Part shown: positions 52,501-64,000 of the stretch, in pieces
Layout of the letters: each line of letters opens with the position of its first letter
Position numbering within the stretch: the first letter of the stretch is position 1
Origin: Escherichia coli
GTDB lineage: Bacteria; Pseudomonadota; Gammaproteobacteria; Enterobacterales; Enterobacteriaceae
Assembly: GCF_003790525.1 (NCBI RefSeq)
Contig: NZ_CP033632.1
Length of the DNA: 64,000 nucleotides
Reading direction: 5' to 3' (one strand)
Program-made: the position numbers

Positions 52501-55500
52501 AAAGAAATGGCGCAAAAAGAAATGACTACTCTAACGACAGCATACTTACAGCAATTGGTATTTTTTGCAGGCGAGGCTACTTGTCATCCTGACGCAAACT
52601 ATTTATTGGAATTTGAGAGGTTAGCGTCACCCGGTATCGTTCTGGAACTGGCCCAACAGGTGCTGGCCTTGAGACAAAAAGAGCAACATGAAAGTAATAC
52701 GTGTAGATTGAATTTTGAGCAGTGGCTGGAACAGCAACGCGGGAAAATCGATGTGGACTGTGGTTGTGTGTCCACTGAAACATTCATGCACTGGCTGCGG
52801 GTAGCTTACGAGGCTGGCAACTATCCGGATATTCCGGATAGTTCGGTGCCAGCGCCAGGAAAGGGCGTCACCGGTGAACGTATCCGCATTAAGCCGCATG
52901 TTTATCGCGAACTGGTTAACCGTCTCCACGATACAGCGATCAAGTGTGCTGGCACTCAGCAATTACGAGAAAGAATTAGCCGTGTTTTGGGCGACGTTAT
53001 TACGCCATATCATCATAAACAAGCCGAGAAAAGCGGTCTGGAAAGGTGTCATCTTGAGGCAGCATTAAACATTAAGCCGGGGCATACGCTAGGCATTATT
53101 GATGCACTGTTGGTTCATAAGATGGCCAGGGCTTTATTGTCGTTGGTGGACGCTGGTGATACAAGCGAGGGTGAAGTATGAGAGTTGCAGATCACATCAA
53201 ACACCTTGAAAGAATTATCGAAAACGGTGAACTCTTAAGAGATCAGATGAGACGCACGGCAGAAGCCAGGGAGGCGATAATCCGCAGTCAGGCTGGTAAA
53301 TTAAAGCAATTGTCAGAGATTAACACGCTATACAAGAACAGACGTAACCGGGCGGTGATGCGGCTTCAGAAAGCACGTAATGAAATTAAATTGGTGGAGG
53401 CAAAACTGAAAAAACAGATCCAGCGTTACGATCAGCAAGATGCTTTTTATGCCGCCATCAAGGCGGCTGCTAATGAAATAGGCATCTGGAAGTTGCTGGT
53501 GGAGAAAGCAAAGACGAAGTTAAATGCCAACGAAAGCTGAACTACAGGTGCCCACCAGCACATACAGAAAATGATTGTTTCCACATCAAGGAGATTTTAA
53601 TGTTTCACTGAAACATTAAGTAAGCCAGTGCATAATTCCATTTTTTACTGACCTTAAAAGCAAAATCAAAACGATGATGAGGATAATAGCCAGAATCTGG
53701 CTAATAATAGGCGCATCTAAAAATGCACTCAGGAACTGAAAAAAAGCGTTCATTCAGGTGGTTCCTTGTCAAATGTAAAGGTGCACTTGCTCACGTTGAC
53801 GTAGAAACCCAACCCCTATATAGTTGGATTCGGTGAATGAAAGTCGTTAACGTGAGCTTACGGCACATGTTTTCGGAAAAACATCAGGGAACGGCTAATT
53901 CCTTGATGCGGGTGGGGTCTGTAATGCAGACCCTATCTATTAACGTCATGATTGCATCTCAAATTTTCTCCTTATCTTCAATTAATCTACATTCATTTCA
54001 TCTGTTAGCCACCACAATATGTAGAAAATGGCCCTCTTGCAAGTGCATAACTTTGTGGATAACTCAGGAAGGAAAAAGTGGCTTTCGCGCACCTTCGGTC
54101 AGACAAGGTGTCCGGGAAAGTCAACGCAAAGAAAAAAATTGTTAAAAATAACGTTTGTTGGAATTGTATATTTTTATCCCCTTCAATGGTTAGCATTCTA
54201 TTAACATCTTTTTTTAGAGACAGAAAAACATATCGTAACAACATATATACAGTGTTAAGCGGCGAGTATTATCCTGCGGTGGGAATTCTGGGCGCTGTTA
54301 GATTCGACTTTCTCAGCAGGATTACATCGTCAACTTGCGACGTTGCCGTATGACTTTCGTGTAATAGGTGACAATGATGCGGCTAGTGAGTTACTTGTGA
54401 AGTTTTTCGGAAAAGGTTTTGTGGCCTCGGATCTTGATGAGCTACAGCAACATGAAGTGTCTAATTTGATTTTTAGCCATAGCCAATAAGCCTCCCTCCT
54501 CCATCAAGGCCACAATTTGTGACCTTAAACAATTTGTTTTCTGCTTTTTCTTATTTGAGAAAATAACGTTGTTGACAGCTAATAGGCTCGTTGTTGTTAT
54601 ACATGCCTGTATAGATTATGACCGTAAATTATTAGCGGATTTTAAGCCATATTCACCGTTGTAGAAATTACTCATGTTCCATTCATTAGGAAGTTCTTTT
54701 CTGTCCAATGTATAGTGGCGCACGATATAACGATCTTCATCTTCTTCGATGGACAGGCGGACATAGCCAATGTGAATCACCGATACGGGCGGTGTTCGTA
54801 TTGCATAGATGTCGCGGAGATATACCGGCAGCTCGACAAATGCATCAGGTGCATCTGTGATGCTCGTTTTTTCACAGTATTCATATAACGCATCGTTGAT
54901 ATCGTTAAGAGATTCATGATCGTATATTTCCAGGTAATTACCGCGATCGCGATGGTACTCGATTTTAGCCATTCAAAATCCCCTGTTATCGTTTTGCATT
55001 TCTCTAATCCGGTTCAGAACTACTTCATGCTGGACTTGGATAGCGGCTTTTTCGTTTTCAAGCCGGGCAATAGACATCTCTAATTCTTTGCTGTACCAGG
55101 CGAGCTGGGCCAGGTTCATCCGGTTGTGGTCGAGAGTTGGAGACACTTCGACGCGATCCCTTTCTTCCTGCTTTAATGAGAAGAGATTTATCTCATCCCT
55201 TGAGGAAAATTCAGCAACAATTTCTTGTTGATGATCCGGTCGCTGCGGCATCCTCGCCAGTATAAATGGCGGTTCTTTTGAAAACATGAATGTCGGTTCA
55301 GACCGTGTTTTTACCCAGCTTGCCTGCTGTCTTTCGGCAAGTTCACAGGCTTCATCATAGTTATCTGCCAAACAAAGCACGGATGGACGGTCCCACGCCC
55401 CACCATTCAGACAATAAACTACAATTTTCCCGTCAGGTTGTGTAACCCCATATGGATGGTCCCACCAGGCGTCCAGCTGAGCTTTAGAGCGTTTCTCGTT

Positions 55501-61500: not shown

Positions 61501-64000
61501 CATTTTCAATATCTGCCAGGCGATATATTTTTGCCTGCGGCCAGCGGTCGCAGATGATCGGTTCTATAGAGTCATAAAGGCTAAATTTTGCTTTCTCGAA
61601 TTCACCGTTGATGATGATTCCATCACGGAGAGTTTCATCGCAGATAAACACACCACACAGCGGCACATGGTAACTAACTGATTTACCATCATTGTAGTTA
61701 GGGCTACTGGAAATGTAATGGACGCGCAGCATTGTTTCGCTAAAGCCGTGTACACGCATACGGAATTTTTCATCCTCCGGGTACTGCTTCATTAGCTCTT
61801 TTGTTGCTTCCAGGTTCTCTATGTATTTCGCACTGTGCTCATTGATCCCCGCGCTTTTCTGGATGCGAATGTCCTTATCAATCAGATGAATAATGCGGCC
61901 AGCGGTCATGTTGACGCTGTTCACAGCTTCTGTCTGATAAGTTGTAACCTTACGCACACCGCGAAGGATGTTAGGCACTGGATATAAAATAGTCTTTGGG
62001 ATATTGAGGTCTGGGTACTGTTCCAGTTCTCGCGCCATTAAAGTCCATTTATCAATTTCAGCCTGAATGCTGTCCGTTTCTTTGAACGGCAGAACGACAA
62101 CCGGGCGTACAGGACGACCGTCGCTGGCGGCATCAACGTGTTGGGCGCGTGCAACAGCTTTTTTTAGAAAGAGATCCCTGAAGCTGACGAACTCCTGGTA
62201 CAGTTGTTCGCCGTAGACATAATTTATCATTGATCCTCCTCCAGAATTGACATGGCCAACAACTCACAGCGGATTACACTGGGAGTTGTTGGCCACCATT
62301 ATAGAAGGATCCAACGAAAATAATAGATTTATTAGTGCATTTATTGTGAGTCTGGCTGGTTAGTGGCCATGAGATATTCGATTGTGTCAGTGAGATCATC
62401 CAGGTCGTCTTGGGTGATGCGGTACTCCTGATTGGATATCTTTGAGTAGTGTTCAGCAATGGCGCGGGCAGCGTCGGTTTCGGCAGGGTCTACAGATAAA
62501 GCGTTAGAGCAATGTCTAACGTCGTCGATGGTTGGTGGAATGAAAGCCATAATTATGCCTCACTGTATTGACAACACAGAGCCTGAAGCTCTGACCTACT
62601 GTTTCACCCATGATCCATGCTGGGGTAATCTAACAACATTGCGCTGTGTGTAAGATGAGCAATGCATAGCTGTAATGCCGTTGTATAAGGTTTCCCTGTT
62701 TGCTCATTTCCTTCTGAGCCGCTCTACAACGCTGAAGACACATTAAATAGTGAATCCAAAGTCGTATTACGAAACGGCGGCAAAACTATAATTTATTAGA
62801 GCAATTGTCAAACAACAATGAAAAACAATCCAGTTTTTGGCTGGTGGAGTGGGATTTTTCTCTCAAAATTTATTGCTCTAATAATTCTTGATTTTTATGC
62901 ACAGCTGGACGTAAACTCCTCTTCGGACCTAATAACTTCGTATAGCATACATTATACGAAGTTATATTAAGGGTTATTGAATATGATCAATTTACCTGTA
63001 AATCCATACAGTTCAATACCTTGGCAGGTCAAATAGTGATCACTTGATCATTTGATCAAGGTTGCGCTACGTAAAATCTGTGAAAAATTGGCGGTGTTAG
63101 TCCTACAGATTTCGCGTAGCGCACTTAGCACCACCAATCAATCAGAGGTGAAAAATGGGATATTCAACTGCTAAAGTGTCCACTCATCTTGAGCTTGAGA
63201 AAAACCGTGGTTACTGGCGGGCAAAAGGGTTTGATCGTGATAGTTGCCAACTGTCATTATCGCGCGGTGAAGAAAAAATAGAACGCACGCGCGGTCGCTG
63301 GCGTTTCTATGACGAGAACCATAAACAGGTAAAGGCAGAGCCGATCCTGTACACTTTACTTAAAACCATTATCTGAGTGTTAAATGTCCAATTTACTGAC
63401 CGTACACCAAAATTTGCCTGCATTACCGGTCGATGCAACGAGTGATGAGGTTCGCAAGAATCTGATGGACATGTTCAGGGATCGCCAGGCGTTTTCTGAG
63501 CATACTTGGAAAATGCTTCTGTCCGTTTGCCGGTCGTGGGCGGCATGGTGCAAGTTGAATAACCGGAAGTGGTTTCCCGCAGAACCTGAAGATGTTCGCG
63601 ATTATCTTCTATATCTTCAGGCGCGCGGTCTGGCAGTGAAAACTATCCAGCAACATTTGGGCCAGCTAAATATGCTTCATCGTCGGTCCGGGCTGCCACG
63701 ACCAAGTGACAGCAATGCTGTTTCACTGGTCATGCGACGGATCCGAAAAGAAAACGTTGATGCCGGTGAGCGTGCAAAACAGGCGCTGGCGTTCGAACGC
63801 ACTGATTTCGACCAGGTTCGTTCACTCATGGAAAATAGCGATCGCTGCCAGGATATACGTAATCTGGCATTTCTGGGGATTGCTTATAACACCCTGTTAC
63901 GTATAGCCGAAATTTCTAGGATCAGAGTTAAAGATATCTCACGTACTGACGGTGGGAGAATGTTAATCCATATTGGCAGAACGAAAACGCTGGTTAGCAC

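Follow-up and report, generated by a model that had tools for sequence, protein, structure and literature searches.

An almost unaltered P1-type packaging, immunity and addiction region in an Escherichia coli phage-plasmid with a 38-kb IS26-bounded resistance island

Introduction

P1-like phage-plasmids, of which P1 (NC_005856) and P7 (AF503408) represent the genus Punavirus, are a recognised route by which genes for extended-spectrum β-lactamases and other resistances travel by infection and not by conjugation. It is well documented that such elements pick up resistance genes by way of IS26, at a small number of plastic loci. Here we analyse a stretch of 64,000 nucleotides from Escherichia coli (contig NZ_CP033632.1 of assembly GCF_003790525.1), called the window in the following, in which positions 54973-64000 carry P1-type packaging, immunity and addiction functions and an IS26-bounded multiresistance island is located upstream of them.

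Several described elements combine a Punavirus backbone with blaCTX-M cargo, as is the case here, i.e., SJ46 (KU760857), JL22 (ON018986), and 163A9 P-P. The 4-kb CTX-M module of SJ46 is 99.9% identical to that of the window, and SJ46 is 95.3% identical over 54973-64000. In these three elements the cargo amounts to a few kb (4.2 kb in JL22) and the totals of about 100-103 kb stay within a headful, which the element studied here probably exceeds. Transfer by infection has been shown for JL22 and 163A9. The P1-like pTZ20_1P (MN510447) carries resistance genes on a 39,980-bp region between directly oriented IS26 copies, and this island includes an F-type tra fragment, as the present one includes a fragment of TraI (Venturini et al., 2019; PMC6906374). 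The same source places the pTZ20_1P island between cin and pacA, whereas the present one interrupts an ead-like gene, and reports other resistance genes than those found here, as well as inversions and an 11-kb deletion of C-segment and tail genes. Furthermore, pTZ20_1P was tested experimentally there, whereas the element described here is known from its sequence alone.

Two close relatives have no island at this site and, probably unlike the present element, are of packageable size. MH422554 (97,213 bp, from infant faeces) is 99.7% identical over 54973-64000 and its pac region and C1 are identical to those of the window, while in p1303_95 (NZ_CP009168, 94,959 bp) nothing interrupts the insertion site, around which the identity is 99.7-100%. 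With P1 and P7 the region shares gene order and all regulatory sites, at 98.9-99.0% identity and with no indel. It differs from the P1 reference in that its c1 is wild type and not c1.100, in that hot is replaced by a P7-type Upf93.6 open reading frame (ORF), and in that a block of ead/Ea22-, DUF4752-, and DUF551-type genes, which carries the 38.3-kb IS26 island, stands in for most of pmgT.

A first-pass annotation of the window considered the element capable of lysogeny as a plasmid and of headful packaging, so that the island could spread by transduction. What the present analysis usefully adds is an argument from size, which tempers that conclusion. For risk assessment its message is negative: intact pac, pacAB, c1, phd-doc, and lox-cre alone do not make a transducing phage; it is the size of the cargo relative to the headful that decides. 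In our preferred explanation, to which we assign a probability of about 60%, intact P1 modules reside on an oversized, stably kept multiresistance plasmid-prophage from which the island would leave in virions only inefficiently.

Results and Discussion

The region from pmgU to cre follows P1 closely

For the alignment, the ends of the P1 reference were joined (NC_005856, 86375-94800 plus 1-3000). Against this sequence, positions 55023-64000 form one ungapped, indel-free block of 8,978 bases (P1 86875-94800 plus 1-1052), 99 of which are mismatched (98.9% identity). When 54973-64000 was compared with phage genomes by megablast, P1-type phages were the sole matches, and MH422554, MH445380, and MH445381 (99.7% identity over 54973-63997) were the closest records, P1 and P7 being 99.0% identical. 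Full-length, stop-free tblastn matches were obtained for 14 of the 16 P1 proteins of this arc, in P1 order, the exceptions being Cre, whose gene is cut by the end of the window, and Hot, for which there is no match. All of the 30-odd annotated P1 sites that were compared project onto the window with 0 mismatches. The resulting order, lxr-humD-phd-doc-pdcAB-lpa-pacA(pac)-pacB-c1-coi-imcBA-loxP-cra-cre, is that of P1. Alignment and gene order identify the region as the arc from pmgU to cre of a phage-plasmid of the P1/P7 type (Punavirus), and this arc has hardly changed from P1. It is P1 as previously described, at 99% identity, a known kind of element that brings no new biology.

The first-pass annotation had listed a LexA-boxed humD, phd-doc, an operator-controlled lpa, pacA with a 4+3 hexamer pac site, pacB, c1, coi, operators, and loxP in P1 order, and all of these are borne out by full-length protein matches and identical sites. 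It had also proposed a comparison with P1 and P7-like references, which, carried out on the window, gave the ungapped alignment at about 99% identity and no visible lesion. Its statement that cre is present without frameshift holds for codons 1-205 of 343 (60%), and the rest of the gene lies past the end of the window.

The packaging module comprises the following features.

58052-58093, plus strand: C1 operator Olpa (58052-58068) overlapping the promoter Plpa, 0 mismatches to the P1 annotation
58139-58591, plus strand: lpa, late promoter activator, 100% identical to P1, no nucleotide difference
58623-58641, plus strand: late promoter LPpac, 0 mismatches to P1
58677-59870, plus strand: pacA, 397 amino acids, full length, 99.5% identical to P1 PacA
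58870-59028, plus strand: pac site, with four hexamers (58870-58909), IHF site (58932-58944), cleavage region (58947-58967), and three hexamers (59000-59028)
59870-61354, plus strand: pacB, 494 amino acids, 100% identical to P1 PacB

The pac hexamers read TGATCA at 58870, 58877, 58889, and 58904, TGATCG at 59000, and again TGATCA at 59012 and 59023. All seven, together with the IHF site and the cleavage region, are identical to P1, and the 4+3 architecture matches that described for P1 (PMC10028697). PpacB has 0 mismatches to the annotated P1 site, and the nucleotide differences between the two pacB genes are 4 synonymous and 0 non-synonymous. Of the genes in this arc, a genome-wide essentiality map shows lpa, pacA, and pacB, and no others, to be required for lytic growth of P1 (PMC10695390); all three are undamaged here.

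Within the pac region of about 160 bp there is a single change with respect to P1, G to T at 58914, between the fourth hexamer and the IHF site. It was considered as a possible pac lesion and rejected, since it is situated outside hexamers, IHF site, and cut region and occurs also in the natural P1-like MH422554.

Upstream of the packaging module are the LexA-regulated genes and the addiction operon.

54973-55557, minus strand: lxr (LexA-regulated function), 194 amino acids, 92.6% identical to P1 Lxr over 189 amino acids by tblastn, 3' end diverged
55693-55712, plus strand: LexA box common to lxr and humD, identical to the annotated P1 site
55732-56121, plus strand: humD (UmuD' analogue), 129 amino acids, full length, 97.7% identical to P1 HumD
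56194-56795, plus strand: addiction operon phd-doc (phd 56194-56415, doc 56415-56795), both proteins 100% identical to P1
56779-56979, plus strand: pdcA, 100% identical to P1
57007-58050, plus strand: pdcB, 99.1% identical to P1

The promoter Pphd is identical to that of P1, and lxr is a gene that the first-pass annotation had not named. Both pdcA and pdcB are non-essential in P1 (PMC10695390).

The immunity region and lox-cre occupy the remainder of the window.

61379-62230, minus strand: c1 repressor, 283 amino acids, 99.6% identical to P1 C1, wild-type allele
62314-62888, unstranded: immC control region, operators all with 0 mismatches to P1
62314-62341, unstranded: operators Oc1a/b, 0 mismatches
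62341-62550, minus strand: coi, 100% identical to P1
62497-62513, unstranded: operator Oc1c, 0 mismatches
62516-62611, minus strand: imcB, 100% identical to P1
62630-62743, minus strand: imcA, 97.3% identical to P1, 1 substitution
62789-62805, unstranded: operator Oc1d, 0 mismatches
62872-62888, unstranded: operator Oc1e, 0 mismatches
62932-62965, plus strand: loxP, 34 bp, exact canonical match, ATAACTTCGTATAGCATACATTATACGAAGTTAT
62994-63013, plus strand: second LexA site, within P2coi, 0 mismatches to P1
63155-63376, plus strand: cra, 100% identical to P1 Cra
63384-64000, plus strand: 5' 60% of cre, codons 1-205 of 343, 1 substitution (A178S), cut by the window end

The C1 protein is identical to those of p1303_95 and MH422554, and its sole difference from the P1 reference is residue 193, a glycine where the laboratory thermosensitive c1.100 has a cysteine. 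A thermosensitive allele was rejected, as G193 is the wild type. Apart from codon 193, the c1 genes differ at 17 nucleotides (2% of sites), all of them synonymous, and the visible part of cre shows 11 synonymous against 2 non-synonymous differences. The substitution pattern in c1, pacB, and visible cre looks like that of purifying selection, strongly so for the repressor. Like the operators, Pc1 and the cre promoters have 0 mismatches to P1.

A search with the C1-operator consensus gave 9 matches in the window, with 0.29 expected; all 9 are located in the P1 backbone, some of them in its left arm, and 0 in the island, and 8 of the 9 coincide with operators annotated in P1. The search for LexA boxes gave 1 match (55693-55712), with 0 expected by chance. 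A chance origin of the C1 operators and the LexA box is excluded. The wiring for normal P1 control, i.e., C1 and all operators silencing lpa and the lytic genes, is intact. Of the characters of Punavirus and P1-like phage-plasmids, the window has a PacA/PacB pacase with pac inside pacA, Lpa with an Lpa-dependent late promoter, phd-doc, and an immC composed of C1, coi, and asymmetric 17-bp operators that are scattered over the genome.

A further operator-like 17-mer with 3 mismatches is found inside pacB (60566-60582, minus strand), where P1 has no annotated operator, and may be a chance match.

The resistance island is a net addition to the backbone

9096-47379, unstranded: IS26-bounded multiresistance island, 38,284 bp
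9088-9095 (left copy) and 47380-47387 (right copy), plus strand: 8-bp target site duplication GGCTATCG flanking the island

The island contains nine complete copies of IS26, two outer and seven inner ones, and one fragment. The two outer ones (9096-9915 and 46560-47379) point in the same direction and do not differ from each other (100% identity). Between them are mph(A), aph(3')-II, oqxAB, a fragment of the relaxase TraI, blaCTX-M, which adjoins an IS5-family transposase, and fosA3; the presence of the cefotaxime and fosfomycin resistance genes blaCTX-M and fosA3 agrees with the first-pass annotation. That annotation placed the P1 functions next to the island, a position that has to be corrected, as the island stops at 47379, 7.6 kb short of lxr, and 47380-54972 is P1-type accessory backbone.

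The empty site GAGGAGGCTATCGCTGCTG is uninterrupted in p1303_95 (94,959 bp), within an ead/Ea22-like gene, and also in many other P1-like plasmids. Because the 8-bp duplication is intact and the site is continuous in p1303_95, the island is taken to be a clean insertion, a pure addition that removed no backbone. With direct outer IS26 copies, the duplication, and a known empty site, it has the makeup of an IS26-bounded composite resistance region (pseudo-compound transposon).

Nine near-identical copies of IS26 ease misassembly, and it might be asked whether backbone and island, the one from a P1-like plasmid and the other from a resistance plasmid rich in IS26, were joined into a chimera during assembly. 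We regard this as highly improbable. Not only do the outer junctions share matching copies of an 8-bp sequence that is continuous in relatives, but the junctions are also 100% identical in independent draft assemblies, both of them in GCA_002942645.1 and the right one in GCA_003686615.1 (RDDW01000119.1). ORFs reading across both junctions are present, residue for residue, in GCA_002942645.1. One of its contigs, PTOJ01000044.1 (34,419 bp), ends in IS26, and its last 9,315 bases equal window positions 1-9315 with 0 mismatches; another, PTOJ01000058.1 (25,340 bp), starts in IS26, and the 10,599 bases compared equal 47253-57851, again with 0 mismatches. These matches show that the element occurs elsewhere, too, and not just in the source of the window. 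Junction queries against RefSeq complete E. coli genomes and PLSDB found no record spanning an island junction, and GTDB representative genomes and IMG/VR gave no exact 40-mer match to the junction sequence.

On both sides of the island the backbone is of P1 type.

1-7280, plus strand: P1 core left of the island, ungapped, 98.3% identical to P1 77264-84543, with gene 25 (cut by the window start), 26, pmgL-pmgS, ppp, and pap
47380-54972, plus strand: accessory and backbone sequence between the island and lxr, with the 3' part of the ead/Ea22-like gene, DUF4752, DUF551, pmgU, pmgV, upfM/N, and Upf93.6
54616-54972, minus strand: P7-type ORF Upf93.6, 118 amino acids, annotated under this name in MH422554, in the place of P1 hot

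All P1 proteins encoded in 1-7280 are full length, except that of gene 25, which runs off the window start. The P1 gene hot, coding for a homologue of the theta subunit of DNA polymerase III, has no tblastn match in the window. P1 pmgT is mostly replaced by an accessory block of about 7 kb (7281-9095 plus 47380-52805) with ead/Ea22-like, DUF4752, DUF551, and small ORFs, a block that is common to many natural P1-like plasmids. The island is inserted in this plastic block and not in a conserved phage gene.

The element is probably too long for one P1 head

The window corresponds to only about 20% of P1, i.e., P1 coordinates of about 77.3-94.8 kb plus 0-1.05 kb. Outside it are the plasmid replicon and partition functions (repA/oriR and parA-parB-parS, IncY or p0111), immI (c4, icd, ant), immT (lxc), the lytic replicon repL, and nearly all P1-type head, tail, fibre, and lysis genes. 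Because replicon, immI/immT, and virion genes lie outside, the lysogeny as a plasmid and the formation of particles proposed by the first-pass annotation are not readable from the window.

Some of what lies beyond can be gathered from the draft contigs mentioned above, which continue past the window for 25.1 kb on the left and 8.6 kb on the right. If the island of the draft strain is the same as that of the window, the element comprises at least 97.7 kb, 59.4 kb of it backbone. As the backbone of uninterrupted relatives is 95-97 kb, about 35-39 kb are still unaccounted for. In MH422554 the corresponding unseen stretch of about 39 kb (approximately 7.3-46.1 kb) holds the genes for portal, Pro, lysin, tail fibre, gpR, baseplate, tape measure, PmgB, Tub, PmgC, and RepL, and immI, immT, and repL fall in this same stretch. 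The genes in it that a virion-forming phage can hardly lack add up to about 17 kb of coding sequence. With these virion genes the element would measure at least about 114 kb, and about 133 kb if its backbone were as complete as that of p1303_95.

The P1 head holds about 112% of the 93.6-kb genome (PMC10999674), and a headful of 110-115 kb is expected, with 95-96 kb observed in nanopore reads (bioRxiv 10.1101/2024.11.15.623857); for the comparison, we took the headful as about 105-115 kb. On this scale the genome is probably too long for one P1 head and would be packaged without terminal redundancy. We infer, rather than measure, that the unit genome is not smaller than the headful and that virion DNA would not be terminally redundant. 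A large sudden increase in size has been described as blocking phage transfer (Pfeifer et al.).

In this context, the view implied by the first-pass annotation can be weighed, according to which this is a fully functional temperate transducing phage-plasmid, a single particle of which converts a recipient to cefotaxime and fosfomycin resistance. The packaging, immC, addiction, and lox-cre functions are intact in all visible parts, as are the morphogenetic genes 26 and pmgL-S of the left arm, and P1-like elements with small blaCTX-M insertions, 163A9 and JL22, have been proven functional. However, these proven cases have insertions of a few kb only, and here at least 97.7 kb are reached before the roughly 17 kb of indispensable virion and repL genes are counted, a size at or above that of the 105-115 kb head, with no terminal redundancy left for cyclisation. 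Because of this, single-particle lysogenic conversion is unlikely, and we consider a fully functional transducing phage-plasmid quite unlikely as well. The step from headful packaging to spread of the island by transduction stands as far as intact packaging modules are concerned, but it left size out of account, i.e., a net addition of 38,284 bp to an element of at least 97.7 kb even without the 35-39 kb not yet seen.

Several points weigh against an oversized genome and its consequences. The whole replicon extends beyond the window, and its total size is an extrapolation from draft contigs and relatives. Only 9,315 and 10,599 bases were compared in the draft contigs, and the draft island could differ from that of the window. 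About 60 kb of P1 are dispensable for lytic growth and plaque formation (PMC10695390), and compensating deletions elsewhere in the element are conceivable. The placement of blaCTX-M and fosA3 relative to the first headful, discussed below, depends on packaging from pac towards lox; the argument from oversize is independent of the packaging direction. Finally, the report on pTZ20_1P, whose 39,980-bp island is likewise bounded by IS26, states that after treatment with mitomycin C it lysogenised one of three E. coli recipients (WH17) (PMC6906374), an observation that also favours a functional phage. Because of this precedent, some lysate-mediated transfer stays open for the present element.

The element might also be a defective, plasmid-locked derivative of P1 which, as in pJIE250-3, has lost structural, lysis, or lytic-replication genes and makes no particles of its own, its pac/pacAB arc having not yet decayed. 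P1-like plasmids without lytic functions are described in the same report (PMC6906374), nine active-looking IS26 copies could have caused deletions elsewhere, and the break in the draft assembly 8.6 kb past the window end suggests a further repeat there. On the other hand, every visible P1 gene is intact throughout the 25.7 kb of backbone within the window, c1, cre, and pacB differ from P1 almost only synonymously, and the target duplication argues that no IS26-adjacent deletion occurred at the island. We consider such a derivative doubtful, while giving it some weight. Two possibilities are left, namely that the element has the unseen genes and most likely does not fit into a head, or that it lacks them and is unable to form particles; in either case it would be unlikely to convert a recipient by a single particle.

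As plasmids, oversized P1-like elements are not rare and form a sizeable minority. Of 55 evenly spaced PLSDB records that have full-length pacAB, about 11 are longer than 115 kb, with a maximum of 146 kb, and most are 90-105 kb in length.

How an oversized P1-type plasmid-prophage might behave

In the lysogen of an oversized plasmid-prophage with intact P1 modules, C1 would hold lpa and the lytic operons off through Olpa, Oc1a-e, and the left-arm operators, phd-doc would kill cells that lose the plasmid, and Cre-loxP would resolve dimers and cyclise incoming DNA. Upon induction, Lpa would activate LPpac, and PacA and PacB would cut methylated pac and initiate processive headful packaging. In P1, packaging proceeds from pac towards lox. 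If this direction applies, the island would be found 83-122 kb downstream of pac in a genome of 133 kb, with blaCTX-M and fosA3 about 114 and 119 kb away, respectively, and the first head would be full within the island, by the time these two genes are reached or before. The headfuls that follow could include the whole island, together with an incomplete backbone. A complete genome with terminal redundancy would not be found in any particle, and partial DNA would be unable to cyclise by its ends.

Different rescue routes can be envisaged. A partial genome might recombine with a resident P1-like plasmid or via IS26, or a cell might be co-infected by particles with overlapping, permuted fragments. 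Alternatively, recombination among six directly oriented copies of IS26 might give rise to shorter derivatives; a deletion of 9096-43242, for instance, would spare just the fosA3 unit and yield a packageable genome. The proposal that a natural P1-type phage-plasmid of about 133 kb still moves the island in its own virions, either by multi-particle reconstitution or by IS26-mediated shrinkage during induction, seems unlikely to us. If true, shrinkage would provide the classical P1CmSmSu-to-P1Cm story with a natural parallel from the present day. The island has probably made of the prophage a multiresistance replicon that is plasmid-locked and stabilised by addiction, and for which the phage route would be inefficient at best.

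Further features of the island

An ORF of 572 amino acids (36817-38535, plus strand) matches the C-terminal helicase part of an F-type relaxase TraI. It points to the capture of part of the island from an F-type conjugative plasmid, like that described for pTZ20_1P. When the window was scanned with Rfam, the P1 arc gave nothing, and the sole matches are located in the island. These are RNA-OUT (13487-13556, minus strand), next to an ORF for an IS4-family transposase, and two matches to the antisense RNA AgrB (19284-19370 and 19945-20032, both plus strand), which are about 660 bp apart.

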